Positions 498 through 62,593 of a DNA stretch of 64,000 bases are shown here, in pieces. Below the pieces are notes generated by a model, which made no database searches, was not told the origin of the DNA, and was given only the letters and a program-made list of their open reading frames with translations. A program made the translations under genes and the position numbers. Source of the stretch: an uncultured virus (IMG/VR IMGVR_UViG_3300010885_038586) (Duplodnaviria; Heunggongvirae; Uroviricota; Caudoviricetes); IMG/VR virus record IMGVR_UViG_3300010885_038586. The stretch is one strand, 5' to 3'. Each line of letters opens with the position of its first letter. The stretch's first letter is position 1.

Positions 498-1073
498 CTA
501 CTTCCCGGCTTTCGCTTTGATCTTGTGAAAAGTCTCTCCCCAAAAATCTGCATCTTCATCTTCTGTGTCTGCCGGAGCGGGGGCGGGTTTGACCAGTGCC
601 AAGTACTCCGCAGTATCGGACAGTTCGCCAGTTTTTGAGACCGTCGGAAGTGGGGCAGGCGGGAGCGTCTCGGCTTTAGGACTTCCAGGCACCTCCATGC
701 TTTCGGCGTACCTGTCTTTTTCCTCTTGAGACATCTCCGTACCATTGCGAATGCAAATGGCTTCAATCAGTGCCTCAATTCCAGGAGATTCCCCCTTTTC
801 ACGCATGAGTCGGAGATGTTGACGTCTGGCCATTTTGTGCTGCCACAAACCTTGATACCTGTCAAGGTACGGGCCTTTTGCCTGCTTGAGCTTCTTTGGG
901 GCGAAGTCGGGGTCAGGAGACACACCAAGTGTATTCGGGCAGTCGCGGTCGAGCCGTTGGCAGATAGCGTCATTGATCCACTTCGTACGGGAGACTCCGT
1001 ACGGAAGGTGAGCGGCACGAAGCCGGGCTTGTGTTACCAGATGCAGATTCAAGAGGATACGTTCGGGATTCAT
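498..1073 (-). CDS. Hypothetical protein, possible ribbon-helix-helix N-terminus; acidic DFWG motif near C-terminus
   Basis: 191-aa ORF; GVSRTKWINDAI resembles an Arc/RHH helix; DEDADFWG. Confidence 0.65.
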   Translation of the reverse strand: MNPERILLNLHLVTQARLRAAHLPYGVSRTKWINDAICQRLDRDCPNTLGVSPDPDFAPKKLKQAKGPYLDRYQGLWQHKMARRQHLRLMREKGESPGIEALIEAICIRNGTEMSQEEKDRYAESMEVPGSPKAETLPPAPLPTVSKTGELSDTAEYLALVKPAPAPADTEDEDADFWGETFHKIKAKAGK

Positions 1074-1121
1074 AGGACTGGAATGTATAACCCTTTTCTG
1101 CCTCCCGTCAAGAGCATCATT

Positions 1122-1275
1122 TTATATACTGTCCAGTAAGTACTGTCCAGACCCCTAAAACGGCTTTCTCTACGGTACAATCCATGTGATTATTTTATAC
1201 ATAATAATCACCAAAACTTTTCCTCATGTACATCTATAAAAGGGGACTGGACAGTACTTACTGGACAGTATATAA
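1122..1275. repeat. 35-bp inverted repeat (1 mismatch) around an AT-rich core; candidate origin or binding site
   Basis: 1122-1156 is the reverse complement of 1241-1275; each arm contains TACTGTCCAG twice. Confidence 0.85.
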
Positions 1276-1341
1276 CAAAAGGGTAGAACTTTAACCTTTG
1301 CTCAAGAGAAAAGAAATATACAAAATATATAGAATCAGTAC

Positions 1342-1370
1342 TTGACGGAGCAATAGAGCACTGTTAAGGT
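1342..1370 (+). promoter_or_regulatory. Sigma70-type promoter
   Basis: TTGACG-17-TAAGGT upstream of the first early ORF. Confidence 0.65.
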
Positions 1371-1404
1371 TCAAACGTTAGGAAACTTCAAACACTTAAA
1401 TATT

Positions 1405-1842
1405 ATGCAAACAGAAATGACAGAAGACAGTAAAAACTTCCTGGAAACCCTCCTTTGGGCCTTGCCGGAAAATGAGCCGCAAGAGGTACGCGATGCCACG
1501 ATTTACGATTTCTCCCCGGAGTTCATTTCCGGCGTTGAGTCATTTATCGCTGGTTTTCGTGCGTTCGCTGGCGAGCGTAACCCCGAAGCACTAGCACAAG
1601 CCGATAGCTGCCCCCGCTCATTCGGTGGCAACGTCTATTTCAGTCTTTCCGGCCACGGGGTCGGATTCTGGGATGATAAAGAATCCGAGGAAATGCAGCC
1701 ACTCTTGGAAGAGTACAGCGGTAGCAAGTACCGCTTTGAGGAGCTTGGCAGCAGTCTGAGCTTTCGGGAAGATGGTAAACTTGACCTTTCCTTCGTCCCT
1801 GAGGTCATTGGTGAATACCGTGCGAAGCTCTTCAGCCGCTGA
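1405..1842 (+). CDS. Hypothetical early phage protein
   Basis: 145-aa ORF with a GHGVGFWD motif recalled from uncharacterised phage proteins. Confidence 0.8.
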   Translation: MQTEMTEDSKNFLETLLWALPENEPQEVRDATIYDFSPEFISGVESFIAGFRAFAGERNPEALAQADSCPRSFGGNVYFSLSGHGVGFWDDKESEEMQPLLEEYSGSKYRFEELGSSLSFREDGKLDLSFVPEVIGEYRAKLFSR

Positions 1843-1850
1843 GAATCAAA

Positions 1851-1904
1851 GTCGAAACGCCTCCGGGCGTCTGGCGGGCACGTCTAACCCGCCACTGATG
1901 AGAC
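1851..1904 (+). ncRNA. Type II hammerhead ribozyme
   Basis: GTC-GAAA-CGCC(tccg)GGCG-TC-TGGCGGG(loop)CCCGCCA-CTGATGA-GAC: complete core with a GUC cleavage triplet. Confidence 0.9.
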
Positions 1905-1938
1905 AAGACACAAGGGAAACTTCAAACACTTAATTATT

Positions 1939-2792: not shown

Positions 2793-2800
2793 ACGACACC

Positions 2801-3349: not shown

Positions 3350-3358
3350 AACCGCACC

Positions 3359-3811: not shown

Positions 3812-4090
3812 ATGAAAACCAGTACTTACGATATGTCAGGAGGCAGCGCCCATGTTCGCGCCATCGCGGAGGAGTCGGGCCTTGATTGGATGGCCTGCCA
3901 TTCAAACGAAAAAACCGCGACCGTCGAAGGGTTTCAAGTTGAAACTTGGTACGACGAAAACTCTAGCTCTGCGTACTCCTCCTGGTGTGCATTCATTAAA
4001 GGGGTCGGCACTTGCTCTGCTATCAGCGTGGAACAAGCCACAACGGAAGTCATTGCTAAAGCCCGCAACGCCAAAAACAAAAAGCCATGA
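3812..4090 (+). CDS. Hypothetical protein
   Basis: ATGA-coupled to the next ORF. Confidence 0.7.
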   Translation: MKTSTYDMSGGSAHVRAIAEESGLDWMACHSNEKTATVEGFQVETWYDENSSSAYSSWCAFIKGVGTCSAISVEQATTEVIAKARNAKNKKP

Positions 4091-4299
4091 AACTTTTCAC
4101 TATCGCCGGAGTAACAGAGTGCGCAGGGATCACGCGAAACATCCCACCACGCTATGACCTGCGTCCCATGAACCACAAGGCGGCTTGCAACTTTGCCCGT
4201 GCATGCACTACCGGCTTCACACGTTGGACTCTGCACCTATGGCCCGACAGCGTGCCTCACACGGGCGAGCCGTTGATTGCAAGCAAGTACCGCCGCTAA
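4087..4299 (+). CDS. Hypothetical protein
   Basis: ATGA overlap. Confidence 0.6.
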   Translation: MKLFTIAGVTECAGITRNIPPRYDLRPMNHKAACNFARACTTGFTRWTLHLWPDSVPHTGEPLIASKYRR

Positions 4300-4431
4300 A
4301 CTTATGACCCCGCCCCGCCTCGCCGCTCAAATCGCGGCAAACGTCAAAGAAACCCAAACACAAGCCCTGCTTAGCTATGTAGCTAAGCAGGAAGCCGTTG
4401 ACAAACGCAAACCAGAAACCAACAAACCGAG

Positions 4432-4776
4432 ATGAAAAACGGAATAGCATTAATGGCGCAAGCCTTGAAAATTGGTACCGTACCCGTGGAACTGCGCAAA
4501 AGCCGTACAGGCTGGCGCGCTTTCATGCCTGCCAGCATCACCCGCAACGGCGGAGTTGATCAAACCTCCCACGTTGAAATTTCCTACCACCCTATGTCCA
4601 AAACCGGCCTGAAAATGTGGCTGGCGCAAAGGTACTGCGCGGAGGTCTTCGAGAAGACCGACGGCGTGTACATTTCCCCGCGCTACGCCATGAAATGCCC
4701 CCGCTGGGGTTCTCGCTTTGGCGCTTTGCCAGAACTTACTCACTTTATGAAACGCGCTGGCCTGATCTCAGTATGA
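4432..4776 (+). CDS. Hypothetical protein
   Basis: ATGA overlaps at both ends. Confidence 0.65.
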   Translation: MKNGIALMAQALKIGTVPVELRKSRTGWRAFMPASITRNGGVDQTSHVEISYHPMSKTGLKMWLAQRYCAEVFEKTDGVYISPRYAMKCPRWGSRFGALPELTHFMKRAGLISV

Positions 4777-5051
4777 ACTCCGCACTTCCCAAGCCTCTGA
4801 TCCTCTGGTGCCGCTCCGAACATGGCGAGCGCGCCGCCCGCATGCTTCCATGCTACATGCGCGGAGAGATGAACAAGTACGCGCCACCCGGCAAAGGAAA
4901 CCGGGCAGCTCGGCGCGCACTGTCGCAATGCACCCTCAAACCGGGCAAGATCGTGCCTCCCGTGTCGTGGAGTCGCAAAACCTGCTGCGCCATCGCCGAC
5001 AACCTGGTACGCATTGCCAACTGCAAAACGCAAATCCCTTGGAAGTCATGA
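4773..5051 (+). CDS. Hypothetical protein
   Basis: ATGA-coupled start at 4773. Confidence 0.6.
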   Translation: MNSALPKPLILWCRSEHGERAARMLPCYMRGEMNKYAPPGKGNRAARRALSQCTLKPGKIVPPVSWSRKTCCAIADNLVRIANCKTQIPWKS

Positions 5052-5236
5052 AACCCGCCACCCTGCAAAACCTCCACCGCGAGCAATTCCTGCGGGCCTG
5101 CAATGACCTGCAAACCGCGTACAACCATGGTCTAGGCATCGTCCGCGCCTCTGTCACACTTCACCGCCTCAAAGGCGTCGTACCCCGTTCCCTGCATCGC
5201 CACATACCCACCCCCAAAACCACTGCAACGCCATGA
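5048..5236 (+). CDS. Hypothetical protein
   Basis: ATGA-coupled at both ends. Confidence 0.6.
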   Translation: MKPATLQNLHREQFLRACNDLQTAYNHGLGIVRASVTLHRLKGVVPRSLHRHIPTPKTTATP

Positions 5237-6081
5237 ACCCCGAACAACTCAAAGAAACCCTGCGCCTTCACTCCCTATGGTTAAAAGGTGATCCCGCTGG
5301 AAAACGTGCGAACCTTCGCAGCGCGAACCTTCGCAGCGCGGACCTTCGCAGCGCGGACCTTCGCAGCGCGGACCTTTCCGGCGCGGACCTTTCCGGCGCG
5401 AACCTTTCCGGCGCGAACCTTTCCGGCGCGAACCTTCGCAGCGCGAACCTTCGCAGCGCGAACCTTCGCAGCGCGGACCTTCGCAGCGCGAACCTTTCCG
5501 GCGCGAACCTTCGCAGCGCGGACCTTTCCGGCGCGGACCTTTCCGGCGCGGACCTTTCCGGCGCGAACCTTCGCAGCGCGGACCTTTCCGGCGCGAACCT
5601 TCGCAGCGCGAACCTTTCCGGCGCGAACCTTTCCGGCGCGAACGTTCGCAGCGCGGACCTTTCCGGCGCGAACCTTCGCAGCGCGAACCTTTCCGGCGCG
5701 GACCTTTCCGGCGCGAACCTTCGCAGCGCGGACCTTTCCGGCGCGAACCTTCGCAGCGCGAACCTTTCCGGCGCGAACCTTCGCAGCGCGGACCTTTCCG
5801 GCGCGAACCTTCGCAGCGCGGACCTTTCCGGCGCGGACCTTGCCGAGAGTCGCGGCCTGCAATTTAGCCAAGCAGCTTTCACCGGGCACGGCGAACGTGG
5901 GAGGATGCTCACGCTCGCAGTCATCGACGAAAAGTCGGTTTTCTTCTGCGGGTGCTTCTGTGGCGGTCCTGAAGAACTGGCAGCGTACATCGCAGCCGGG
6001 CCGTACAAGTACAAACCCTCGCGCCTGCTCGCTATGAACTTTTGCCTAGAGGCAATCAAACTGGAAAGGGTCGAAGCGTGA
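5233..6081 (+). CDS. Pentapeptide repeat protein
   Basis: About 35 A[N/D]L(RS/SG) pentapeptides; LHSLWL..G.RA N-terminus and CGCF C-terminal domain. Confidence 0.95.
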   Translation: MNPEQLKETLRLHSLWLKGDPAGKRANLRSANLRSADLRSADLRSADLSGADLSGANLSGANLSGANLRSANLRSANLRSADLRSANLSGANLRSADLSGADLSGADLSGANLRSADLSGANLRSANLSGANLSGANVRSADLSGANLRSANLSGADLSGANLRSADLSGANLRSANLSGANLRSADLSGANLRSADLSGADLAESRGLQFSQAAFTGHGERGRMLTLAVIDEKSVFFCGCFCGGPEELAAYIAAGPYKYKPSRLLAMNFCLEAIKLERVEA

Positions 6082-6178
6082 ACCCCTTGGAACCGGAAGA
6101 ACCCGCCGCCCTGGTACAGCTTGCGCTGGTGCTCCTGATGGGTGCCGCCTTCGCGTTGGTCTTTTTGGGCTTTTGCCA

Positions 6179-6206
6179 TTGACACTATTTAAATTCATCC
6201 TATACT
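6179..6206 (+). promoter_or_regulatory. Sigma70-type promoter
   Basis: TTGACA-16-TATACT. Confidence 0.7.
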
Positions 6207-6233
6207 TTCAACCCCAGCAACTCCACACCTACT

Positions 6234-8057
6234 ATGCAAAGCAAACCCGTTAAAATGATCGCCCGTGCAGACCTTGTACCCTGCGACAGCTACGAGGCCA
6301 CGTACTGCCCCGAAGATGACAAGCTCAGACTCTACGTTGGCCGAATCCCTCGTGAAGAGTACAACTTTCTCCGCGCCGAAGGTTGGACCAGCACTTCAAA
6401 ACAGTCTGAAGCAGGACAGGGCGAATTTGCCGCCGTTTGGACTCCCAGCCGCGAGGCAACGGCACTTCAATATGCTGAGTTTATCGGCGACGAAGACACC
6501 CCGCCTACCGAGCGAGCCGCAGACCGTGCCGAGCGTTTCGGCGGGTACATGGAAAAACGGGCAGGCGAAGCCACCGGCCACGCCGACAACTACGACAGCC
6601 GCCCCGCCGCCCACGGGTTCCAGTCCGAGCGCAAAGCCGAGCGAGCCGCCGCACGACATGACCGCATTGGCGACCGTGCAACCGACCAATGGAGCAAGGC
6701 CGAGTACTGGCAGCGCCGTACCGCTGGCGTGATCTCCCATGCACTGCACAAGTCCAGCCCTGAAATGCGTATGGGCCGCATTAAGACGCTAGAAGCTGAG
6801 TTGCGGAAAGCCAGGGCGGATCTGGAAAGCCGCGCCAAGCATTACCGGAATATGGTCAAGCTCTCCGCCCTTGAAGACCCCGAGCAGAAAACCCGGCTTG
6901 TCTTGCATTACGTCGGCAGTACTTCCACCTGGGAACGGTATCTGCACCCCCGCGCTGCCACACTGGAGAGCGAGTACTGGCGCACCAACGAAACCAGCCT
7001 TTACAGCCTGATGACGTACGAACTCGACCCGATCACCGGGGCGGAAGCGTGCGCGCTGTATTTCTCAGACCATGGTGAGCCGAAAGACTCAACCCAATGG
7101 AGCCGCCACCTCGAATTGCGCCTGGCCTACGAACACCAGATGCTTGAGGCGCAGGGAGGCCGGGCCGCGTTCGTGGAGATGGAAGCGGGTGGCTTTGTCG
7201 GCAAGCACCAGATTACGAAAGTCACGAAGTCCCCGGCAACGGGTCGCGTGGTGAGCGTGGAAATCGAGCACATGAGCGAAACCAACCAGTACGGCAGAGA
7301 ATGGAGCGACGGCAAAGGCCCGCGCATGCTCAAGACGTTGATCAACATTGAACGCATGGGCGCTAACATCTACCGCGCTCCCACCGACGAAGAGCGGGCA
7401 GTTTACGCCGCCAAGGTGGCAGACGCCAAGAAGGCAAAAGCCAAGGCCAGCAAAGAGAAAGCCGCAGCCGGTGAAAACTGCCCGCTCATCAACCCCACCG
7501 ATGAGGATGCCGAACGCCTGCAAGCCCTTTGGAATGAGAAGGCGACAGAGTGCGGATGGTATCAACGCAACGGCGGCAAACCTTCCGAGGTTCTGCGGAT
7601 GACCCAGGCGCAGTACAGCGCCAACAGCGGCGGCACGTACGCCACCCTTGGCACCATCACCGTCTGCGAGCATGGCACCAAGCACGAGAAACGTTCAGGT
7701 GATACCATCACCCGGCACAGCGTTTTTAAGATCCGCAGCACCAGCAACGGGTACAACGCTGACCGCGTGGTACTCATCACCGACAAGCCGCAGAAGAAAA
7801 TCCCGTGGGATGCGGTCAAAGCCGCCCGCGCCAAAGAACCGACCGTTGACATCCTGCGTTCCCGGTTTGACGAATTGAACACCCTGCTTCGTGGCAAATG
7901 GATGCCCGACAGCAAGACGGCAGAGCACAAGCTGATCCAAGACGCCCGGTACTGCGGTCTGGTCTTCGTCTCCTCTATGTCTCAGTTCGGCTGGAGCGAT
8001 AAAGGCGCGGCAATCTACAAGGCACACCAGCAATCTGAACAACTCCAAGCCGCGTAA
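6234..8057 (+). CDS. DUF3560-like protein
   Basis: ATYCPEDDKLRLY...WTPSRE...ERAADRAERF...KAEYW...RIKTLEAELRK pattern. Confidence 0.75.
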   Translation: MQSKPVKMIARADLVPCDSYEATYCPEDDKLRLYVGRIPREEYNFLRAEGWTSTSKQSEAGQGEFAAVWTPSREATALQYAEFIGDEDTPPTERAADRAERFGGYMEKRAGEATGHADNYDSRPAAHGFQSERKAERAAARHDRIGDRATDQWSKAEYWQRRTAGVISHALHKSSPEMRMGRIKTLEAELRKARADLESRAKHYRNMVKLSALEDPEQKTRLVLHYVGSTSTWERYLHPRAATLESEYWRTNETSLYSLMTYELDPITGAEACALYFSDHGEPKDSTQWSRHLELRLAYEHQMLEAQGGRAAFVEMEAGGFVGKHQITKVTKSPATGRVVSVEIEHMSETNQYGREWSDGKGPRMLKTLINIERMGANIYRAPTDEERAVYAAKVADAKKAKAKASKEKAAAGENCPLINPTDEDAERLQALWNEKATECGWYQRNGGKPSEVLRMTQAQYSANSGGTYATLGTITVCEHGTKHEKRSGDTITRHSVFKIRSTSNGYNADRVVLITDKPQKKIPWDAVKAARAKEPTVDILRSRFDELNTLLRGKWMPDSKTAEHKLIQDARYCGLVFVSSMSQFGWSDKGAAIYKAHQQSEQLQAA

Positions 8058-10018: not shown

Positions 10019-10228
10019 ATGCCCCTGACTGCTGACTACACCTACGACCGCGATGCCGACTGTTTCGTCGTCACCGACGGCGCAGGCAACGAGTTGTGCC
10101 GCACGGCCTCGCCGCACAAGTCCACTGACAAAATGCTCATTACCTTTGTGGCTTGTGGCATCAACGAAGGCAGGCTCATTTTCCCCAGCACCGGCGACAC
10201 TCAACCCCGTAATGTCCGACCCGATTAA
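10019..10228 (+). CDS. Hypothetical protein
   Basis: 69-aa ORF. Confidence 0.6.
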   Translation: MPLTADYTYDRDADCFVVTDGAGNELCRTASPHKSTDKMLITFVACGINEGRLIFPSTGDTQPRNVRPD

Positions 10229-10532
10229 ATACCCCGAGACCCTTGACTGGTCCAAGCTGCGCAACGACGAGATCGCTGCCATGATGGGCTGCCACCCCAA
10301 CACCGTGCTCCGGCACCGCGTGGAACTGGGCAAACCCAAAGCCCCGCGCAAGTCTGGCAGCGGCAGCGAGAAAAAGATCCTCGATCACCTCATCGACTTG
10401 AGCAAACCCGTCGCTTGGAACGCCAAGAAACAAAACGCACACCCCCAGTGGATGGGACACCGCATGCGCCAACTGCGAGCTAGACGGGTGCAGGACGATG
10501 CCACGTCAGACGACAAAGAATTTTGGGGATAG
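10212..10532 (+). CDS. HTH DNA-binding protein ending in EFWG
   Basis: NDEIAAMMGCHPNTVLRHR HTH; C-terminus DDKEFWG. Confidence 0.75.
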   Translation: MSDPIKYPETLDWSKLRNDEIAAMMGCHPNTVLRHRVELGKPKAPRKSGSGSEKKILDHLIDLSKPVAWNAKKQNAHPQWMGHRMRQLRARRVQDDATSDDKEFWG

Positions 10533-10998: not shown

Positions 10999-11256
10999 AT
11001 GTCCGACCCTGAAGACGTCGCACCTGTACAAACACAACAACCTCTACGACGCGCACTCACGCCGATGAAAGGACTTAACCATCCCCGAGGCTTGCTTCCA
11101 CTATTGGCTTTAGCGTCCACGGTGGGAGGTGTCAGAATGCACTTCCCTCGAAAACGCGAATCGCGTAAATGCGCTCTCCCGTCTTGCGATGTGGAGACAG
11201 ACGCCCGAGGGGGATATTGCTGCAAGCGGCATCACGACGAACATCACAACAAATGA
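10999..11256 (+). CDS. Hypothetical protein with Cys/His cluster
   Basis: CALPSC...YCCKRH; ATGA-coupled to the next gene; start uncertain. Confidence 0.5.
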   Translation: MSDPEDVAPVQTQQPLRRALTPMKGLNHPRGLLPLLALASTVGGVRMHFPRKRESRKCALPSCDVETDARGGYCCKRHHDEHHNK

Positions 11257-11789
11257 ACTTCTTCCACCAACTCCACAAGTCCAAGCTCGATGCCATGCGA
11301 GCCGCCGCCCCACGCGCAACCCTGCACCTGCTGCACGAGTCCAACGGTTTCTCTGTGTATCTCAGCGAAGCCGCAGCCGCGCAGAAGGTCTGCCCGCAGT
11401 TCGGCACGATCACCAACCACGCCGAGGACGACATTCTCGACGAGCCGGTGCTGCATCTCTTCATCCCCATGGAGCAAATGGTGCGCTTCGTCGAGGAGGT
11501 GACAGCCAGCCAATCGGTTGCACTCGTTGACGTGATCCTGGCAGACAAAGTGCATGCCGCACGGTATGTGCAGTACGCGTATTTTCCGAAGCAGCGCAGT
11601 TACCCTGAATCTGTTGGTACGTTCCAGCACGACGCTACCAAGACTGAAAAATACCCAACTCCTACTCAGGAAGAGTACGACCGCTTGGTGAAGCGTTGCT
11701 ACCGGATGTCGCAGGCAGAGATTGACGAGGAAGGGCGTAAATCTGCACCAGTTGAGAAAATCGGCGATGATCCAGACTTTTGGGGTTGA
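11253..11789 (+). CDS. Hypothetical protein, possible divergent MutS domain I, ending in DFWG
   Basis: Spacing resembles MutS_I (L...P.ATL.L....F.VY..EA....IP......V..V....VALVD). Confidence 0.65.
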   Translation: MNFFHQLHKSKLDAMRAAAPRATLHLLHESNGFSVYLSEAAAAQKVCPQFGTITNHAEDDILDEPVLHLFIPMEQMVRFVEEVTASQSVALVDVILADKVHAARYVQYAYFPKQRSYPESVGTFQHDATKTEKYPTPTQEEYDRLVKRCYRMSQAEIDEEGRKSAPVEKIGDDPDFWG

Positions 11790-12778: not shown

Positions 12779-15373
12779 GTGCCTAAATTCTTCACAGGTA
12801 AGAGTGTAAGCTCTCCCACACTGACGGCCTCACCCGCCGCTACTTTTCGCGACTTCGTCAAGCAGTTCATAGACCTCCCAGTCCCGCTCTCCGTCACCAA
12901 GGATGAGTACTGGGCGATGGGGAAGAAAGAACGTTCAGTTGCCAAGCAGGTAGGGTACTGCGTCCCATGCACGTTCCCCCGCTCCCCGTGGGAAGGACGA
13001 AAGCTGGAGAGCGCCCAAGCGTGCAATTTGCTGATCGTGGACCTCGACAACTCGAACGACGCTCGGCCCTTTGTCGAAGAACCTGGCAGGCTTGTCTCAC
13101 TTTTGTCGAAGTTTAACTTTGTCGCCTACCAGACCCTGTCTTCCACGCCAGAGAACCCTCGCCTGCGCATCATGGTGGAGGCACACAGCATTCCAGTGGA
13201 TCGCTACCCCGACGCCGTGCTGACCATCTGCGGGTTGTTGGGCTTGTCGGAGGTAACGAGAGAATCGGTTATCGCCTGCCAGCCGATGTTCCGTCCCACG
13301 ACGTTCAGTGACCAAGACCCTGAGCTGGAGCACCCGGTGCTCATCACCCGTTTTGACGCTCGTGCTTTTAAAGAGGAAGACATCAGCGGCGAGACTGAGA
13401 CACTGCCGGGCATCGTGTCCGGTGGCAAGCCTGCCCGCGTAGCCAGCAACTCATCCTCGGTCGATGACTTCCTGCTGTTTTACCAATCACCAGTTGCCGG
13501 TCTGACCTTGGAGCAGATTAAGGAGGCGCTGGAGTTCGTGGAGCCAGATTGCAGTCGTCCTGATTGGATCAACATCGCTGCCGCGCTGAAGCACCAGTTC
13601 GGCGCGACCCAGGACGACGAGGCATACGAGCTTTTTGATACCTGGTCTGCCACCGGCAGCAAGTACGACTCGGAGAAGGACACGGCTACTGTGTGGAAGT
13701 CCTACTCGGAGCAGGCCAAGGGCCGCAGACCGATCACCATCCACTCGTTGTTGAAGCGTGCAGTCGAAGGCGGTTGGAACTGCGACCAGGTGAAGGAGAA
13801 CACTTTCGAGGCGCTGTCGAAGTGGATCATGTTCACGGCCTCCACGTCATTGCAACTCATCAACGAAGGCGTGCGCCGAATCGCCGCTGCCCCATTGCTG
13901 ACTGCCACAGAAGAAGGCGCGTTGCTACAAACGCTGGTGCAGCGCAGCCGCCAAGATTTCCAGCAGCCGTTGCCGATCATCGCGGTGCGCCGTGATCTCA
14001 AGAAGCTCAAGGAGGCGTTGATCGTGAAGAAGCACGAAGCCTCCGAAGTGATCCACCCCCCGTGGTCACTGGGTTTCGTCTATGTAGCTGCCACTGACAC
14101 CTTCCTGCGCCACCGCACCCGCCAAGAGTACAAACGCATTGCGCTAGACAGCGTGTTCTCGCGTAAACTGTTGCCCACGGCGGAAGAACTTCAAGCGATG
14201 GACAAGGACGTGAACGAGCACACGTTGGGAACCCCCAAGTTCCTGCCCTCCCTCTACCTGCTCAACCATCTCAAGTGCCAAACCGTTGACGACGTGACCT
14301 ACAACCCGGCAGCACCGGAGGACATCATCGTGCGTGAGGATGGCAAGCTCTACGTCAACATATACCGCCGCAGCTACCGCGAAGCCGACCCCGCGCTTGC
14401 CAGCTACGTCGAAGACCTGATGTGCGAGCAGCTTTCTAACCTCATCGCCGAGCCGCACTACCGCACCCACTTGCTCGACTGGATGGCCTACAACGTGCAA
14501 TACCCCGGCAGCAAGCTCCGCCATGCACTATTGCTCCAAGGTGGAGAAGGCTGCGGCAAAACATTGATCTTTTACAGCCTCCGCGCCGCCCTCGGCAACG
14601 ACAACACCAAGATCGTCAACAGCGACACCATCAAAAAAGGGTGGAACGAGTGGGCCTTCGGCAGTCAAGTGGTGTGCATCGAGGAGTTGCGTGTCGCCGG
14701 GGTCAACCGTCACGAGGTGATGAACACTCTAAAGGAGCCAATCACCAACGACTTCGTGCCGGTGAATGAGCGGGCCAAGAACACGCGCAACGTGCAGAAC
14801 CGCACCAACTACCTCGCGTTCACCAACCACCACGATGCCATCGTCGTAGGAGAGGACAGTCGCCGCTGGTGGGTGGTGAAGTCCGCGCTCCAGCACAAAG
14901 AGCAGATCCGCACCATCGTGGACAAAGACCCCGAGTACTTCGCTCGGTTCGCCGAGTCACACGCCACCCACGCGGGCGGCTATCGGCATTTTTTTGAGAA
15001 TCGCACGATCTCGTCTAACTTCAAACCGTCCGGCCCGGCCCCCGCCACCACCTATTTGCAGGAGATGGTGTCCGACACCAGCGACGAAGTGACTGCTGCC
15101 ATCACCGAAGCCTGGGAAGAGGGCAATAGCCCGCTCATCGGCAACGACGTGGTGGCCTTCACCACTCTGCGCAGTGCCCTTGACATCAATGGCCTGAAGG
15201 GACTCACGCAGGCACGTCTGGCGCACGCCTTGCGCAACGCCGGGTTCCAGCCATTCGGTAAGCACATGATCGGCACAGTTCGGCAGCCTGTCTGGGCACG
15301 CCCTGATCGCCTCAACGGCGAAAATCCTGTCGAATTGTTGTTGCAGAGGTCTGAAAATTCATCCATACTTTGA
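12779..15373 (+). CDS. Primase-helicase (AEP-like N-terminus, PriCT-2, SF3/DUF5906-type helicase)
   Basis: DLD, PRLR; W..IAAALKH...FD.WS..GSKY (PriCT-2); GGEGCGKT Walker A; IEE; FTNH; RRW. Confidence 0.9.
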   Translation: MPKFFTGKSVSSPTLTASPAATFRDFVKQFIDLPVPLSVTKDEYWAMGKKERSVAKQVGYCVPCTFPRSPWEGRKLESAQACNLLIVDLDNSNDARPFVEEPGRLVSLLSKFNFVAYQTLSSTPENPRLRIMVEAHSIPVDRYPDAVLTICGLLGLSEVTRESVIACQPMFRPTTFSDQDPELEHPVLITRFDARAFKEEDISGETETLPGIVSGGKPARVASNSSSVDDFLLFYQSPVAGLTLEQIKEALEFVEPDCSRPDWINIAAALKHQFGATQDDEAYELFDTWSATGSKYDSEKDTATVWKSYSEQAKGRRPITIHSLLKRAVEGGWNCDQVKENTFEALSKWIMFTASTSLQLINEGVRRIAAAPLLTATEEGALLQTLVQRSRQDFQQPLPIIAVRRDLKKLKEALIVKKHEASEVIHPPWSLGFVYVAATDTFLRHRTRQEYKRIALDSVFSRKLLPTAEELQAMDKDVNEHTLGTPKFLPSLYLLNHLKCQTVDDVTYNPAAPEDIIVREDGKLYVNIYRRSYREADPALASYVEDLMCEQLSNLIAEPHYRTHLLDWMAYNVQYPGSKLRHALLLQGGEGCGKTLIFYSLRAALGNDNTKIVNSDTIKKGWNEWAFGSQVVCIEELRVAGVNRHEVMNTLKEPITNDFVPVNERAKNTRNVQNRTNYLAFTNHHDAIVVGEDSRRWWVVKSALQHKEQIRTIVDKDPEYFARFAESHATHAGGYRHFFENRTISSNFKPSGPAPATTYLQEMVSDTSDEVTAAITEAWEEGNSPLIGNDVVAFTTLRSALDINGLKGLTQARLAHALRNAGFQPFGKHMIGTVRQPVWARPDRLNGENPVELLLQRSENSSIL

Positions 15374-15612
15374 GCATGCCTCCCAACCCCGCACTCGACC
15401 CCATCAAAGCCTTCGTACGTCAGCACGGCGGGGCGTGGCCCACTTGGGCTTTCAAACCTACGCGCCCGGCCCGTCGTACTCCTGCCGAACGTCGCACGCC
15501 TGACCGTGTGTTTTCTCTTGAGCACAAAATGCGTGCGCCCGGTCGCCGGTTTGCTGTGGTGGCACAGGACTGGAATGCAGCTTATGACCGTCTGGGGGTG
15601 CTGTTGTCGTGA
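15370..15612 (+). CDS. Hypothetical protein
   Basis: 4-bp overlaps with both neighbours. Confidence 0.55.
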   Translation: MSMPPNPALDPIKAFVRQHGGAWPTWAFKPTRPARRTPAERRTPDRVFSLEHKMRAPGRRFAVVAQDWNAAYDRLGVLLS

Positions 15613-16289
15613 CCGACGCCGAATTCATTGCCCTGCTCGAAAAGCACGACTGGTATTTTGAACGGTCAGAAGACAACCGTGAATATTCACGCGGTCTTGC
15701 TTCTCAGAAAAAGCTGCTCTACCTCTGCCAACAACATCCCAAACTGTTCCGGCTTTACAACCACGCAAGCAACTGCGTAATCCGCAACGCCCCTTTTGAC
15801 TTTCCATCCATCATCGGCACAACGCAGGTGAAGGATGAAACACAACACACCCAAACCGCAAAACCCATGAAAGACCTCCTCTGGCCTATCTTTGAACCTC
15901 TCGTCAACAAACTCGTCGAAGCCATCGACCGCAACACCGCCGCCAAACTCGGCACGGTCGCTGCGCCTACTTCCGTCGGCCCCACCGGCGAAGCCACAGC
16001 GCCCGCTGAGAAAGCCACCAAGGCTGCCAAAGCACCCAAGGCCGCCCCAGCACCGGCTCCCGAGCCTGAACCCGCTGCCGACCTTCCGGCCATCAGTGAA
16101 GACCGTTTGAAAGCCACCGTGAAAACGCTGCCAAACGAGAAAAAGACTGTGCTCAAGGAGTACTTCAAAGCGAAGTTCGGCTACAACACCATGGCCGAGA
16201 TCGCCGAAGAAAACCGCGCCGACATCCACGCCAAAGCCGTCAGCTTCGGTGCTGTGGACACTGACCCTGCCGACATCGGCGACATGTAA
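15609..16289 (+). CDS. Hypothetical protein preceding the DUF2800 gene (possible internal start at 15867)
   Basis: HDWYFERSED N-domain, Ala/Pro/Lys linker, C-terminus DIGDM. Confidence 0.75.
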   Translation: MTDAEFIALLEKHDWYFERSEDNREYSRGLASQKKLLYLCQQHPKLFRLYNHASNCVIRNAPFDFPSIIGTTQVKDETQHTQTAKPMKDLLWPIFEPLVNKLVEAIDRNTAAKLGTVAAPTSVGPTGEATAPAEKATKAAKAPKAAPAPAPEPEPAADLPAISEDRLKATVKTLPNEKKTVLKEYFKAKFGYNTMAEIAEENRADIHAKAVSFGAVDTDPADIGDM

Positions 16290-16308
16290 TCGCCGACTGA
16301 ACCGAACC

Positions 16309-16340
16309 AGCCGCTGTTCCGATGAGGGGCAGCGGCTTTT
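16309..16340 (+). terminator. Intrinsic terminator-like hairpin
   Basis: AGCCGCTG...CAGCGGCT followed by TTT. Confidence 0.55.
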
Positions 16341-16347
16341 GGGGTAC

Positions 16348-17547
16348 ATGGCTTCTACTGCCCCCATCCCCGAACACTCCCGCCTCTCCCCCTCCAAGGC
16401 CCACACTTGGACCGAATGCACGGCGGCGCTCGCTTTTATCAAAGCCAACGAGCATCGCCTGCCACCCGACAAACCCGGTCCGGCTGCCATGGAAGGCACC
16501 AAGGCCCACACGGTGGCCGAGTATCTGCTGCTGGGCAAACCTGCGCCAAGCTGGGCCAGCAAGGAGATGCTGCGCCACGGCAAAGCGTATGCCGATTTCT
16601 GCCACGACGTGATGGGACCAAAGCGCGACGTGATCCGCTGGGGTGCCGAGTATCGGGCACCGCTGTACTACCTGCCCAGCGAACGCGGCACCGTGGACTT
16701 CCACGCGCTGACCAAGACCGGCGTGCATCTGGTGGACTACAAATATGGCTACGACCCGGTGGACTCCGAGCGCAATCTGCAAATGGCCATTTATGCTCGC
16801 AGCTTGGTCGAGGACATGTTCGACGGTTTTTGGTATGCACCGCTACCCGACGAGTTCCCTGTGACCGCGACCATCTTTCAGCCGCGATTGGAGAAAGACC
16901 ACACCACCTGGACGACGACCTGGGGCGAACTGAAAAAGTTCACCGACGAGGCGATCACCCCGAAAGCGCAGACCATTTTGCGCGGAGGTCCCGGAGTGTT
17001 TAAGTGCGGACCAAAGATTTGCAAGTGGTGTCGAGCCGACGTGATCTGTGAAGCCTACAACAACTCGCTGCTCGACGACTTCAGGGACGTAGTGGAAGCC
17101 GTGCCAGACAAAGACCTGCCCGCCGTCTCCGCCATGCCGGACGAACGCCTTGTCCAGTTGTTCAACAACCGTGACAAGCTCACCGACTTTATCAAGGCAC
17201 TGGAGAAATTCGTCAACGGTCGCATGCTCTCCGGCAACAAGCTGCCAGGCATCAAGCTGGTGATCAGTCGCGGCGGACACCGCAAGTGGTCTGACCCTGA
17301 TGCAGCGGGCAAGCTGCTGCTCAGTTTGAAGTTGCCCTACGACGACGTGTACCCACCACCGGATGTCATCACTCCCGCTGTGGCCGAGAAGCTCACCAAG
17401 GATATGAAGGGCGAGAAAATGATCAAGATGCAACGCCTCATCATCAAACCGCCGGGCCAGCCCATCGCTGTGCCGGAGAATGATCCACGCGCACCGTACG
17501 AGAATGACCTGACCGGCGACTTCGCTGGGGTCGATTTGTCCGAATAA
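16348..17547 (+). CDS. DUF2800 Cas4-like PD-(D/E)xK nuclease
   Basis: HSRLSPS..W..C, EGT.AH, GTVD, DYKYG, N.QM.IYA, QPR, C.WC. Confidence 0.9.
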   Translation: MASTAPIPEHSRLSPSKAHTWTECTAALAFIKANEHRLPPDKPGPAAMEGTKAHTVAEYLLLGKPAPSWASKEMLRHGKAYADFCHDVMGPKRDVIRWGAEYRAPLYYLPSERGTVDFHALTKTGVHLVDYKYGYDPVDSERNLQMAIYARSLVEDMFDGFWYAPLPDEFPVTATIFQPRLEKDHTTWTTTWGELKKFTDEAITPKAQTILRGGPGVFKCGPKICKWCRADVICEAYNNSLLDDFRDVVEAVPDKDLPAVSAMPDERLVQLFNNRDKLTDFIKALEKFVNGRMLSGNKLPGIKLVISRGGHRKWSDPDAAGKLLLSLKLPYDDVYPPPDVITPAVAEKLTKDMKGEKMIKMQRLIIKPPGQPIAVPENDPRAPYENDLTGDFAGVDLSE

Positions 17548-17634: not shown

Positions 17635-18354
17635 ATGAGCACCCCAGCACCCGCAAGAGATCCCAACGTCGGCACTTTCAGTGGCCGTTTCAGCTTCCCA
17701 GTCATCAACGAGAAGCAGCGCCTCGCCGCCGAGCAGAAGCGCAAGAAGAACCCCAAACCTGGCGAGGAGGACAAGTCCACCGGTTTCGGCTGGAGCGTCA
17801 TCATCGACAAGCAGACCGGTGCCAAGGACATCGAGAAGGCTTGGGAAATCATCAAGCGTGTCGCCGCTGAAAAAGCCGAGTGGACTGGCAAGATTGTCAT
17901 GGTTAAAGGCCGCAAAGAACCACTGGTCAACCAGACCAATCCAAAAGCTGAGAAGGTGGTGCTCATGGGCATTGCTTTGCATGACGGCGAAGACAAGGCC
18001 GACAAAGATGGCTACGGCGATGATGTGATGTACATCAGTGCCAACCGTTCGGTGTCCAAAGGCCCACCTGCGGTCAAGGACAAAGCCCTTCAGGACATTC
18101 GGCCTGAAGAGTCGCACTACCCCTACGCTGGCTGCTACGTGAAGGTCAGCGTGCGCTTCTGGGCACAGGACAACGACTACGGCAAGCGTGTGAACGCCGA
18201 GGCCCGCGTGGTCATCTTTGACAAACACGGCGAACCGTTTGGCGAAGCACCTGTCGATGCCGAGTCCGACTTTGCCGGTGTTGACCTCGACGCCGACGAT
18301 GAGACTGCCCCAGCCGGGAAGTCCAAAGCTGCCGTGGACATCGACGACATGTGA
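17635..18354 (+). CDS. ssb: ssDNA-binding protein (DUF2815 / T7 gp2.5-like)
   Basis: RFSFP, L.DG, YAGCY, GEPFG, acidic tail; position between DUF2800 and PolA. Confidence 0.85.
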   Translation: MSTPAPARDPNVGTFSGRFSFPVINEKQRLAAEQKRKKNPKPGEEDKSTGFGWSVIIDKQTGAKDIEKAWEIIKRVAAEKAEWTGKIVMVKGRKEPLVNQTNPKAEKVVLMGIALHDGEDKADKDGYGDDVMYISANRSVSKGPPAVKDKALQDIRPEESHYPYAGCYVKVSVRFWAQDNDYGKRVNAEARVVIFDKHGEPFGEAPVDAESDFAGVDLDADDETAPAGKSKAAVDIDDM

Positions 18355-18737: not shown

Positions 18738-18775
18738 TTTTCTGCATTGACAAAACCCAAGCACTTCCGATTATC

Positions 18776-24991: not shown

Positions 24992-25001
24992 TCACCACAC
25001 A

Positions 25002-58896: not shown

Positions 58897-59264
58897 TGGT
58901 AAAATTTAACGATGCCTCCCCTCAATACCGGAACCAGATCATCAAAAAGGGTCTGGGCGTCTGTCCTACGTGCGGCGGTAAACCTTCGCCCCGTTCGCCG
59001 AAGCGTGGTTACTGCGAAAAGCACATTGAAGCGCGTGCCGCCTGGAAACGACGCAACCTTGGGTGCAAACGTAGGTTCACGCCCAAGGCTGTGTGGTTGT
59101 CGCTGGATTGGACGCTCGGCCCAAAGCTGGTGGCTGCGATGCTGGCTGTCAGCGTGCAGACGGTGAAGAAGAAATACAAGGGACTGGCCGCGACCGGCAA
59201 GATCAGACCGGTGCCAGGGTTTCTGCCGGGGCGGAAGAAGCGGCGTCAGCCCCAGAAGTCTTGA
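58896..59264 (+). CDS. Zn-finger + HTH putative regulator
   Basis: CPTCG...YCEKH; LDW...VAAMLAVSVQTV. Confidence 0.7.
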   Translation: MVKFNDASPQYRNQIIKKGLGVCPTCGGKPSPRSPKRGYCEKHIEARAAWKRRNLGCKRRFTPKAVWLSLDWTLGPKLVAAMLAVSVQTVKKKYKGLAATGKIRPVPGFLPGRKKRRQPQKS

Positions 59265-59695
59265 TCGTCGAACGGGGGTGGGGTGAAGACCACGACCGCA
59301 TTCGGGAAAGGGGCCGAGTTTGAATGTCCTCCAAATTTTAGCCTCCCCCGCAAGAAAGTAATTTGACCCTTCATCGCATAGTCATGCCACCACGCGGTGT
59401 CGGTACGAGCCGGGACCAAACACACTACCAGTGCTCCTTGCTGACTCTCTTCGTACGCTTTGCGCATCCACGCGGCGATGGTGCGCCCATAAGGAGGGTT
59501 CATCCAACACTTCCCCCCCCATGGCTGCTTCAGCCCATCATGCTCTTGGTCAAAGTACCTGGACACTTTGGCATTCTCGAAAGAAGCGCACACGTCCAAA
59601 TCGAAAGGACCATACTGCTCTGACATCTTGCGGAAAAAGTCTTGTGGCGTCGGCCAGTCGTCAGAAGCACTGGAGAAGTGGACTGCCGTTTTTAT
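59246..59695 (-). CDS. Phage DNA N6-adenine methyltransferase (Dam-like) ending in DFWG
   Basis: WPTP, FDLDVCA, WMNPPY, LVPARTDTAWW, RLKF, APFP; start probably ATA at 59695. Confidence 0.9.
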   Translation of the reverse strand: MKTAVHFSSASDDWPTPQDFFRKMSEQYGPFDLDVCASFENAKVSRYFDQEHDGLKQPWGGKCWMNPPYGRTIAAWMRKAYEESQQGALVVCLVPARTDTAWWHDYAMKGQITFLRGRLKFGGHSNSAPFPNAVVVFTPPPFDDQDFWG

Positions 59696-59994
59696 GGTGC
59701 CACCTCCGTCGAGAAGTTCCCTGCCGCGCCCATCCGGCTGAACCGCTGGACGATGTTCCAGTCCAGGTCGGCGAACGCCACCTCGTTGTCGTCGATGAAG
59801 TCCCACGCGGTGGTGTAGTTGCGCTGGGTGGGATTCTTGCAGAAGCGCAGCATCCGCCGCTGGGCTTCGATGCGCACACGCTGTTCGTGCGTCGTGGTGA
59901 CGGACAGATAGACCTCCCACGATCCCCAGCAGAACAAGATCAGCAGGGCGGAGGTAATGAGCAGCCGGACGGTGGTGTAGTGGTCGAGGTTCAT
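59692..59994 (-). CDS. Hypothetical membrane protein
   Basis: N-terminal TM segment; ATGA-coupled start. Confidence 0.65.
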   Translation of the reverse strand: MNLDHYTTVRLLITSALLILFCWGSWEVYLSVTTTHEQRVRIEAQRRMLRFCKNPTQRNYTTAWDFIDDNEVAFADLDWNIVQRFSRMGAAGNFSTEVAP

Positions 59995-60275: not shown

Positions 60276-60607
60276 GGAAGTGGAGGTAGTGGGCAGTAAT
60301 GGGTGACGCGCTCAAGCACATCCTCGTGGACGGGCACCTGGCGACTGGTGATGATCACGAACGGGAATGCCACGTTGTCGCCGCCGACGAACAGCGCGAC
60401 GTACTCATGCTTGTCCCAGATGTGCTCGTCGTCGCCCTCGGTGGGTATCCAGCGGAACTCCGTCTTGCGCCGGATCAGTCTGAACGGGTTGAACTTCTGG
60501 GCGTAGTGCTTCCACCACGGGGTCAGGTCGGTGGAGTATCCATCCTCGATCAGTGAGGCCGGGGTGCCGCCGCAAGCGGGGCAGGAGGGTGAGGGTGGGA
60601 GGTTCAT
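60272..60607 (-). CDS. Hypothetical protein (DUF551-like C-terminus)
   Basis: WIP...VTHYCPLPPLP. Confidence 0.65.
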   Translation of the reverse strand: MNLPPSPSCPACGGTPASLIEDGYSTDLTPWWKHYAQKFNPFRLIRRKTEFRWIPTEGDDEHIWDKHEYVALFVGGDNVAFPFVIITSRQVPVHEDVLERVTHYCPLPPLP

Positions 60608-60798
60608 TGTTTGTGTTTCTTCAGTAGTTTGATTTCCACGCGCACCAGTCTATCGCCTGCTGCCGCACATTGCTCCCAAGGCACGCCTGCAAAGGCTTCG
60701 TGATGCATGATTGTTTCTCGCTTAGTGCGCCCGTTACTGGCCGAGTACACTCCTTCGGGATACACGGCCATCCATTGTTTTAGGGTAGTTAGTTTCAC
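60604..60798 (-). CDS. Hypothetical protein
   Basis: GTGA-coupled start. Confidence 0.55.
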   Translation of the reverse strand: MKLTTLKQWMAVYPEGVYSASNGRTKRETIMHHEAFAGVPWEQCAAAGDRLVRVEIKLLKKHKQ

Positions 60799-61277
60799 GC
60801 CGGTTGCAGTTGTTGGTTCAAAACTTCTTCCAGCTTCACCCGTGCGGCGACCATCTGACTGAGCCAGCCAGGCTTCTGCACTGCCGGGTGAATGCACTCG
60901 ATGGTGGGCGGCAGCGGGGTCTGTGGCTGCTTCTTGGCACGCTGCATGTCGCGCAGCGCCTCCTTGGCCGAGGTGCCGAACGTGATGATCGCGTCAGGGC
61001 GGAAGCGCCCGATCACACCTTTGACGTGCTCGACGTTATAGGGTGGTCGGCCTCCACTGTTGCCGGTGACAACGGTGGAGGCGTTCTCGAAGGTCCACTG
61101 GTGCTCTTTGAGCGACTCGCCGAACACCGTCAGAATGCGACGACCGGTGAGGCAACCGCTGGCGAACAGCAGCCGGGCGACCACCTCGTGCCGACGATCA
61201 CGGTTGCGGTCGAGTAGGTCGTGGACTCGTTGCGGGTCTTTAGCCCAGGTGTTTTGCAGGATGGCGAGGATTTTCAT
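60795..61277 (-). CDS. Uracil-DNA glycosylase superfamily-like protein
   Basis: TGRR, N, PDAIITFG..A, HPA motifs. Confidence 0.6.
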   Translation of the reverse strand: MKILAILQNTWAKDPQRVHDLLDRNRDRRHEVVARLLFASGCLTGRRILTVFGESLKEHQWTFENASTVVTGNSGGRPPYNVEHVKGVIGRFRPDAIITFGTSAKEALRDMQRAKKQPQTPLPPTIECIHPAVQKPGWLSQMVAARVKLEEVLNQQLQPA

Positions 61278-61356
61278 ACGTCGGTGCTGCTGAAGATGTC
61301 GATGGCCAGTGCCAGCGCAAAGACGACCACGAAGATAAAGATGGCGTGCTCAGCGG

Positions 61357-61569
61357 TCATGGGGTGACAAGGGTGAGACAGTCTTCGTGAAACGTGTCAC
61401 GGACAGGTTCGTACGATGCGGTGAACCACAAACACTGCACGTCTTTCTCCAAGCACTGCTCGACGGTCATGTGGGTTCTTGCGCCGTTTAGGCGCACCAC
61501 GTCGCCTCGTTTGAAGCGCGGCGGTTGGATCGTTTCGGGGAACATATCGGGTATGGCTTCGTTGCTCAT
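61357..61569 (-). CDS. YodC/DUF2158-like protein
   Basis: FKRGDVVRL....MTVE....V.CLWF...F....L. Confidence 0.8.
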   Translation of the reverse strand: MSNEAIPDMFPETIQPPRFKRGDVVRLNGARTHMTVEQCLEKDVQCLWFTASYEPVRDTFHEDCLTLVTP

Positions 61570-61655
61570 GGGGGTATCTGGTCTAGGGTTGTGTAAATGT
61601 CAACAGTTAATCTTTGCACTTGTGAAAAATTACTGAAGCGACTGGGCTGACTTCT

Positions 61656-61931
61656 TCACTTCTCTTTTTTCCTCTGACCATTGCGCTCGTCCCGCAGGCA
61701 CCCGCACGACCTGGACTTGCCCGAGGTCAGCGCCGTGGCGTGGATTGCAGGTTTCTCCACGCCGCAGTTGCAGCGGCAGTGCCACCGGCTATGGCGGTTT
61801 TTGCCGTGCGGCGGTTTCGGCTCAGTGGTCAGGCCAAGGACGACCCAGCGGTGGAAGCGTTGACCGGTGAGGTCTTTGAAGCAGGGGTGGCGTCCGCGTG
61901 GCGGGTCGGCTGGGGTGAGGAGGGAGGGCAT
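61656..61931 (-). CDS. Stand-alone N-terminal domain of an HNH/AP2-type endonuclease
   Basis: DLTGQRF.RWVVL...WHCRCNCG...LTSGKSRSCGC with no nuclease domain. Confidence 0.75.
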   Translation of the reverse strand: MPSLLTPADPPRGRHPCFKDLTGQRFHRWVVLGLTTEPKPPHGKNRHSRWHCRCNCGVEKPAIHATALTSGKSRSCGCLRDERNGQRKKEK

Positions 61932-61987
61932 AGCGTGAGGCGTGGGAGGATATTCCCGTGTTGTGTAAATGTCAACAGTTGATGTTG

Positions 61988-62593
61988 CTAGGACCAGAAG
62001 TTTTCAGGCTCTGCCGAATCTGGCCGCAGCGCCCGAGTCCACTGCTTCGCCATGGCAGCGGCGATGCCGGGGAAGGTACGAGACCTTTCCTTCCACCGGT
62101 AGGCGCTTGGCGGCAGTTTCCAGACTCTCTGCTCCCGACCTTCGACGATATTGCTCGGCACCAGTAATGGTAAGTTCTTCAGCCACAGGCACGTCGCCTT
62201 GGTCTCCCCGTGTCCATGCTGCCAAGGTTGAATCACTTGATCCGGTTTGCGAATCTTCGAGGAGATCACGCTGACGGGATTTTCCAACGCAATGTGCGGG
62301 ACTGGTGCGGATAGCAACAAGCGCACGAAGTCCAAAGCCTCTGCCTGTTCTGCCTCTTTATCCTTGAACCACCGTGCGCCAGACACCGCCAGATGAGTGC
62401 AGGGTGGATGCGCCACCATGATGTCCCAGCCATCGCCTAAGATGCTGCTCACGTCGCACTGAAGATGGTTGCCGGGCTTCTCGCTTGGCAGCAGATCGCA
62501 CGACCATGCCTCCCAGCCTAGCGCGGCAAAAGCGTCACGCACCGTGCCACTGTACTCGCAAGCGACTAAGACTTTTCCTAACGGTGGGGTCAC
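61988..62593 (-). CDS. Phage cytosine methyltransferase-like protein ending in NFWS
   Basis: VLVACEYSG, AHPPCT, ENPV, QPWQHG, RSRTFPGIA.AMA.QW. Confidence 0.88.
   Translation of the reverse strand: MTPPLGKVLVACEYSGTVRDAFAALGWEAWSCDLLPSEKPGNHLQCDVSSILGDGWDIMVAHPPCTHLAVSGARWFKDKEAEQAEALDFVRLLLSAPVPHIALENPVSVISSKIRKPDQVIQPWQHGHGETKATCLWLKNLPLLVPSNIVEGREQRVWKLPPSAYRWKERSRTFPGIAAAMAKQWTRALRPDSAEPENFWS

Follow-up and report, generated by a model that had tools for sequence, protein, structure and literature searches.

The window analysed here is a stretch of 64,000 nucleotides from an uncultured tailed phage (IMG/VR record IMGVR_UViG_3300010885_038586) with a G+C content of 58%, and makes up nearly all of a contig of roughly 66 kb. 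About one tenth of the phage's proteins, mostly unrelated DNA-acting enzymes, bear an acidic peptide tipped with Phe-Trp-Gly (FWG). Seven open reading frames (ORFs) end in acidic-x-x-FWG and one in the variant FWS; in two more the motif lies within an acidic linker (Table 1). The longer form F-[DN]-[DE]-x-x-F-W-G is found in four of the seven tails (HNH, SNF2, DUF4326 and Dam). These ten sites had been listed in an earlier reading of the sequence alone (the original prediction), and all of them are present. The window contains a plus-strand early region, a replication/recombination module, a structural block and a methyltransferase group. The module encodes a primase-helicase, a DUF2800 nuclease, a gp2.5/Enc34-type SSB (a protein that binds single-stranded DNA), a family A polymerase, and the VRR-NUC, HNH, SNF2 and DUF4326 proteins. 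No ORF of the structural block ends in FWG, in agreement with the claim that the tag is confined to non-structural, mostly DNA-acting proteins and behaves as a lineage-specific feature.

Table 1. Features of the window, with the FWG and FWS carriers first
Feature	Position	Strand	Family match	C-terminus, motif or remark
191-aa protein	498-1073	-		internal DEDADFWGE, 15 residues short of end
159-aa protein, possible helix-turn-helix (HTH)	10053-10532	+		ends DDKEFWG
206-aa protein, weakly MutS-domain-I-like	11169-11789	+		ends DDPDFWG
VRR-NUC-type endonuclease	21675-22025	+	phrog_93	ends ERQDFWG; stop overlaps next ATG (GGATGA)
HNH endonuclease, one of three paralogues	22462-23262	+	phrog_374	ends FNEKEFWG
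SNF2 helicase	23259-24689	+	PF00176	ends KFDEEAFWG
DUF4326 protein, 93 aa	24686-24967	+	PF14216	ends EFDEEAFWG
394-aa protein	30847-32031	+		internal DDDDFWGDD island, variable linker
Dam-type N6-adenine methyltransferase	59246-59920	-	PF05869, E 4.6e-28	ends FDDQDFWG
DNA methyltransferase	61988-62950	-	phrog_757, E 1.4e-68	ends EPENFWS (variant tail)
Primase-helicase (PriCT-2 + DUF5906/VapE), receptor candidate	12779-15373	+	PF08707, PF19263	ends ENSSIL, no tail here
p226	15609-16289	+		ends SFGAVDTDPADIGDM; tail resembles SSB tail
Intergenic hairpin	16309-16344	+		between p226 and DUF2800; then TTTTGGGG, non-coding copy
DUF2800 / PD-(D/E)XK nuclease	16348-17547	+	PF10926	ends GDFAGVDLSE
gp2.5/Enc34-type SSB, receptor candidate	17635-18354	+	PF10991, phrog_112	...SDFAGVDLDADDE...AAVDIDDM
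HNH endonuclease paralogue	18747-19562		phrog_374	
Family A DNA polymerase	19559-21610	+	PF00476	tail-less
HNH endonuclease paralogue	62590-63147		phrog_374	
Pentapeptide-repeat protein, 282 aa	5233-6081		PF00805, E 1.8e-97	early region
p667, 667 aa, putative large terminase	25002-27005			Walker A/B-like and nuclease-like motifs
Glycosyltransferase-like genes				
Structural block	~32.6-58.8 kb	-		includes 3374-aa ORF
3374-aa ORF	32615-42739	-		structural block
Methyltransferase group	59-64 kb	-		

Family scans covered 41 of the window's proteins against Pfam and 43 against PHROGs, and about half of the scanned ORFs have no family match. The matches bear out the names VRR-NUC, HNH, SNF2, DUF4326 and Dam. 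Three other labels of the original prediction are less secure. The supposed cytosine methyltransferase is a DNA methyltransferase by its phrog_757 match, with a putative cytosine specificity. The HTH label is weak, with sub-threshold Pfam matches; the MutS-I-like label is also weak, as the MutS_I structure neighbours have TM scores of 0.46-0.49 to a low-confidence Atlas model. The SNF2 gene has its true start at position 23259, an ATG that overlaps the stop of the HNH gene. The pattern recurs in G001, a second and complete FWG genome of 68.9 kb with eight C-terminal FW tails and three internal motifs. These include the orthologues of the 'HTH' protein (54% identical, ending EDPDFWG) and of the 'MutS-I-like' protein (78% identical, ending DEDADFWG). 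The G001 orthologue of the phrog_757 methyltransferase is 70% identical and ends ELENFWE; that of the 191-aa protein is 32% identical and retains FWGG near its end.

The number of FWG ends is far in excess of chance. A greedy gene set of 72 ORFs, in which VRR-NUC (the seventh FWG end) is displaced by an antisense ORF, holds six of them, whereas 20,000 resampling trials yield 0.006 on average and never more than one. No other C-terminal tripeptide occurs more than twice in the set. At the DNA level, the window has 13 copies of TTYTGGGG where 4.9 would be expected. Coding FWG sites account for nine of these copies, and the four left when they are removed are at chance level. It had been pointed out that conservation of TTYTGGGG regardless of frame would mark a nucleic-acid signal. 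In the loci of seven relatives, 17 of the 26 copies are in-frame FWG-stop ORF ends and five more are in-frame internal FWG sites in real ORFs, a result that does not refute the original prediction.

The synonymous variation described in the original prediction is borne out by the codons of the seven tails: Phe is encoded by TTT in three and TTC in four, Gly by GGA in four, GGT in two and GGC in one, and the stop is TGA in six and TAG in one (the FWS tail also has TAG). Across the clade, 25 ORF ends of the type FW-x-stop use TTC (15) or TTT (10) for Phe, and their last codons include GGA (14), GGT (7) and GGC (1). The SNF2 octapeptide FDEEAFWG is found in four nucleotide versions, in the window and in the relatives L168, L169 and L172, and all differences between them are synonymous. 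Because the codons of this octapeptide vary at synonymous sites while the amino acids stay constant, we conclude that selection targets the peptide and not the DNA. Residues F469, E471, F474, W475 and G476 are invariant across 17 FWG-bearing SNF2 homologues of 54-91% identity; the linkers before the tail differ among the SNF2 C-termini shown.

A contrary explanation takes the DNA itself as the conserved element, either a ribosome-binding or coupling signal or a linker for cassette recombination, with the peptide as a by-product. Three of the seven tails do overlap the ATG of the next gene (GGATGA), the HNH tail also encodes a Shine-Dalgarno sequence for SNF2 (AAGGAG-N8-ATG), and mosaic junctions fall on tails (see below). 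However, no downstream start overlaps the remaining four FWG tails, the FWS tail or either internal site, and other overlapping gene junctions in the window are without FWG. Taken with the varying third-codon positions and the chance level of TTYTGGGG outside coding sites, this leaves the DNA explanation a very slim chance of being correct. The non-coding copy of TTYTGGGG at 16337 is the 3' flank of the stable intergenic hairpin (-27.9 kcal/mol, z-score -5.2), which a consensus scan did not call a terminator. TTTTGGGG is conserved upstream of DUF2800 in L168 and L169.

Homologues outside the clade lack the tail, a comparison that had been proposed earlier. Among 120 listed DUF4326 homologues, 115 end right after the domain, four end in FWG (all at least 71% identical) and one in FWQ. 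The 120 listed SNF2 homologues are more varied: 71 stop at the core (...LESYR..), 17 end in FWG, four in FWx, 17 in W[IVL] and three in [FI]C, and eight have other acidic tails. The AlphaFold2 model of DUF4326 has mean predicted local distance difference test (pLDDT) scores of at least 90 in the ten-residue blocks of residues 11-80, an average of 69 for residues 81-90 and values below 50 for residues 91-93, the FWG itself. Homologues and model together show the tail to be a disordered add-on. The motif also seems to work internally, as a conserved island within a variable linker. In the 394-aa protein, DDxFWGD is kept in all four FWG-clade orthologues; the surrounding linker varies in length and sequence. 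DDxFWGD is absent from the orthologue in L008, a genome with tails of other kinds.

Protein searches list many contigs of 60-75 kb that belong to the same clade as the window. A blastn search against cultured phages found none similar at the DNA level (the top matches span 2% of the query). A scan of bacterial genomes found no close or prophage relative, only two SNF2 matches of 36-38% in contigs of metagenome-assembled genomes. The matches listed from a metagenome scan are mostly distant relatives. An IMG/VR pattern scan for D-E-E-x-F-W-G-stop returned ten stretches, of which six (in L168, L169, L172 and L173) are ORF ends, all of the same clade.

Comparison within the clade adds a point to the original prediction: FWG is, by these sequences, one dialect of a broader habit of tailing proteins. 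Relatives with an SNF2 51-57% identical to that of the window tail the same families of proteins in other ways. L006 has [DE]-F-C at the end of its primase, DUF2800, phrog_67 methyltransferase, VRR-NUC and SNF2. L011 and G002 have [FI]C tails, L010 has WI or EI, L007 has E-x-E-[MV], and L008 mixes FC and WI. The VRR-NUC, SNF2, DUF2800 and primase of L006, L011 and L010 each end in the dialect of their own genome. VRR-NUC orthologues end in GFWG (L001), DFWG (L169), GFWR (L168), EFC or DFC (L006, L011, L008) and CEEI (L010), and the phrog_67 methyltransferase ends in FWG in L168 and L169, in FC in L006 and in WI in L008. In more distant relatives, whose SNF2 is about 35% identical, a tail is found on the SSB only, DDDFL[SAN].

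The replication core of the window carries a second class of motif, which the original prediction did not mention and which is defined here by sequence. Between 15609 and 18354, DF[AG][GA]VD[LT] is found in the SSB, p226 and DUF2800, and the SSB and p226 end in DI[DG]DM. No Pfam or PHROG family and no usable Atlas structure neighbour was found for p226. The DUF2800 protein of G001 ends DFAGVDLGGEETDFWG, which contains both motifs, with the FWG tail behind the DFAGVDL-type motif; we read this as FWG having probably been added behind an older motif. In FWG relatives with a called SSB, this protein ends in DDM (L001, L003, L004, L169) or DDMM (L168), and SSBs of the same family generally end in an acidic run and a hydrophobic residue. 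The Enc34 SSB end implied by a printed primer is WDEDEV (PMC5686142). The primase-helicase, which has no tail in the window, bears one in FC and WI genomes. The family A polymerase ends in ...[FY]Y.K in all ten clade genomes or loci where it was found. As a separate observation, the polymerase is longer in relatives (1003 aa in L169 at 3897-6908, and 812 aa in L168 at 14569-17007) than the 683 aa found here, and several database homologues have about 1000 aa. Inteins or other insertions are suspected in the long polymerases of L169 and L168.

Two explanations of the tail in terms of protein fate can be weighed on this distribution. The tail could be a C-terminal degron or timing signal, by which a protease or adaptor removes early and middle enzymes late in infection. 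Its extreme C-terminal position and its restriction to non-structural proteins fit such a role. However, conserved internal copies exist, the strongly acidic context is unlike known bacterial C-terminal degrons, and replisome core proteins bear equivalent tails in FC and WI genomes; we give the degron little chance of being right. Least probable of all is that the tail is a sorting signal by which enzymes are loaded into the capsid and then injected along with the DNA. Protective enzymes injected with DNA exist in other phages, and the window encodes a structural-block protein of 3374 aa. Against capsid sorting, the primase, DUF2800 nuclease and SNF2, which are replication proteins, carry equivalent tails in relatives, and no structural protein carries the motif or visibly pairs with it.

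Tail DNA also lies at sites of recombination. The window and L169 are 92-97% identical over most of their shared DNA, and homology ends a few bases past the VRR-NUC stop. The tail of the L169 SNF2 and the DNA that follows it match the DUF4326 tail of the window and the DNA that follows that, and the difference between the two sequences therefore reads as a clean gain or loss of DUF4326 between two near-identical tail repeats. The junctions lie at 22014-22027 and 24660-25009 in the window and at 7846-7859 and 9995-10066 in L169. The HNH gene of the window and the methyltransferase that takes its place in L169 have only FNEKEFWG-stop in common (9/9 alignment positions, 25/30 nucleotides). Since the two genes share the tail only, the HNH tail may be a passenger inherited from the displaced methyltransferase. 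Mosaic junctions at tails could provide a simple route by which unrelated genes gain a tail. In L009 (2470-2510), a 10-codon ORF, M-S-F-N-E-E-D-F-W-G, lies directly after a methyltransferase ending FNEAQFWG, whose stop codon it overlaps; from its sequence it looks like a leftover or a free-standing tail.

The recombination of tail DNA bears on a further explanation, in which there is no common receptor. Each tail, being acidic and aromatic, would be a cis-acting DNA mimic that shields the DNA-binding surface of its own enzyme, in the manner of the T7 gp2.5 and Enc34 SSB tails, and concerted evolution of the tail repeats would keep the tails uniform. All identified carriers bind DNA, tail DNA does recombine, and removal of the Enc34 SSB tail is reported to alter discrimination between single- and double-stranded DNA (PMC5686142). 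Nevertheless, the FWG tip of the DUF4326 model is undocked on its own domain, at the low pLDDT given above. Unrelated DNA-binding surfaces would not all require F-W-G, synonymous divergence among the tails of one genome argues against recent gene conversion, and internal copies are found in long linkers. Shielding in cis is therefore considered improbable.

The explanation we prefer, with a probability of roughly 0.55, is that the tail serves as a short linear motif by which proteins dock on one shared receptor, in an enlarged version of the T7-type system. A disordered, portable peptide on unrelated accessory DNA enzymes (methyltransferases, nucleases, SNF2, DUF4326 and putative regulators) would tether them to this receptor. 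The acidic run would face a basic rim, and a hydrophobic pocket would take up the Phe-Trp pair; a basic residue would clamp the terminal carboxylate or, in most internal copies, the Asp or Glu after Gly. Through docking, enzymes that modify or process DNA would be concentrated where phage DNA is replicating. We infer three parts of this scheme: that the tails bind a common receptor, which protein this is, and that the enzymes are recruited to replicating DNA. Literature searches at title and abstract level found no description of a C-terminal FWG motif, which agrees with the original prediction.

Most likely, the receptor is a phage-encoded part of the clamp-less, T7-type replication/recombination core. 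We rank the gp2.5-type SSB first, the primase-helicase second and the polymerase third. Crystals of Enc34 ORF6 are reported to have the acidic C-termini placed on the concave beta-sheet of adjacent SSB molecules (PMC5686142). This placement indicates that an SSB of this family can hold an acidic tail in trans, and the SSB is kept as first candidate because of it. Among FWG genomes the polymerase is of two types. They are 42-45% identical to each other, and each stands at a similar distance from the polymerases found in FC and WI genomes. The polymerase is an unlikely dialect-specific receptor, since both types coexist with the same tails. SNF2 likewise has divergent types among FWG genomes, with unchanged tails. 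The primase and DUF2800 are themselves tail carriers in FC and WI genomes. A complex prediction with the polymerase, the OB domain of the SSB (residues 1-205) and the last 45 residues of SNF2 scored 0.00; it was run without controls and has no bearing either way.

Docking tails of this general kind are found in several known systems. In T7, the tails of gp2.5 (SSB) and gp4 (primase-helicase) likewise place an acidic run with an aromatic residue at the free C-terminus of several replication proteins, and the context is also a gp2.5-type SSB, a family A polymerase and a primase-helicase. The receptor of the T7 tails is the T7 polymerase; here the polymerase is disfavoured as dialect-specific receptor. 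The window also differs from T7 in having eight to ten carriers, which are accessory enzymes, and in having an SSB and a primase without FWG. Its tip is an aromatic pair followed by Gly, whereas T7 tails have a terminal Phe. The gp2.5 tail is reported to interact physically with other replication proteins (PMC10359462). The tip of bacterial SSB (DDD[IL]PF) is comparable as an amphipathic acidic tip on a disordered linker with many contacts to DNA-metabolism proteins, and the SSB ends of the distant relatives resemble it. In bacteria, however, one hub tail binds many clients, whereas here the clients carry the tail and the SSB has another one.

Clamp-binding motifs (T4 gp45-binding tails, the bacterial motif and the PIP box) provide a further parallel: unrelated DNA enzymes share a short, often C-terminal motif that binds one hub. 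The PIP-box clients of PCNA include a eukaryotic maintenance methyltransferase. The consensus is QL[SD]LF for the clamp motif and Q-x-x-[LIM]-x-x-[FY]-[FYW] for the PIP box. The FWG tail has no Gln, and its upstream Phe is five residues from the FW pair, not three; by sequence it does not belong to the clamp-motif family. T7-type replisomes work without a clamp, and no sliding-clamp family was found among the window proteins scanned against Pfam (41) and PHROGs (43), in a genome with many ORFs that match no family. Should the phage SSB be the receptor, the closest functional analogue would be the basic cleft of RPA70N. This OB-fold domain of the ssDNA-binding protein is reported to bind short acidic, aromatic peptides of more than 20 partners (PMC10479964); it differs in being eukaryotic, in having internal, helical motifs and in lacking homology.

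A host protein could also be the receptor (for example the sliding clamp, a pocket that normally takes the tip of the host SSB, RNA polymerase or a nucleoid protein), with dialects that follow host lineage. The dialect group coincides with the phage backbone, which would track host range: the terminase is 83-98% identical among FWG genomes and 46-58% identical to other clade members. No phage protein could be singled out as the receptor, and mosaic replacement of polymerase and SNF2 in FWG genomes leaves the tail unchanged. On the other side, clamp-binding and PIP motifs have a Gln and a spacing that the tail does not share. In addition, a single tight SNF2 subclade shows several switches between FC and WI, and L008 has both, which would be odd for a conserved host site. 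A host receptor is thus judged unlikely.

Several points weigh against docking on a single phage receptor. FWG genomes have SSB cores that differ widely (40-97% identity) and a mosaic polymerase, and neither protein tracks dialect cleanly. The primase (71-96% identical among the full-length copies found in FWG genomes), DUF2800 (74-96%) and the terminase follow the dialect group but would also track the host. The coexistence of FC and WI in L008 means that dialects are not strictly one per genome. Conservation at the tails that overlap a start is partly confounded with translation signals, and recombination at tail DNA could homogenise tails without any receptor. In a tree of 112 of the 120 listed SNF2 homologues (eight were dropped for length, and the last 30 residues were removed), FWG is found in two well-supported subclades and only two tail changes are forced by well-supported branches. 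Independent gains, expected if the tail follows genome and not gene, were not demonstrated by this tree. Because the FWG proteins sit in two well-supported subclades, the distribution of FWG in the SNF2 family could largely be plain inheritance.

A more tentative extension of the docking explanation is that the tails form a private address code. One phage receptor (the SSB or the helicase) would read a lineage-specific tail in a role like that of PCNA or RPA70N, cassettes that arrive between tails would be joined to the label by recombination at the tail DNA and so become clients at once, and relatives would keep distinct dialects. If true, such a code would direct methyltransferases, nucleases and remodelling enzymes to phage DNA that has just been made, and would show how a clamp-less replisome organises its accessory enzymes. 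The DNA methyltransferases among the clients would presumably protect the new DNA from restriction. If one receptor reads the tails, then the tail is a ready-made list of the clients of that hub. Dialects, together with tails at mosaic junctions, suggest that new genes can be wired into a viral interaction network in one recombinational step.

Some other features of the window should also be noted. No tRNA genes were found in it. The protein p667 has no Pfam or PHROG match and is 46-98% identical across the clade; its Walker A/B-like and nuclease-like motifs are read as those of the large terminase, and on account of this reading it was dropped as a clade-specific hub candidate. The three paralogous phrog_374 HNH endonucleases lie beside or between replication and methyltransferase genes, in the manner of homing endonucleases, and one of the three ORFs overlaps the 5' part of the phrog_757 methyltransferase ORF in a different frame. 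The pentapeptide-repeat protein of the early region belongs to a family that includes DNA mimics. The 3374-aa ORF of the structural block has 86% identity to its counterpart in G001 and 28% to that in G002.

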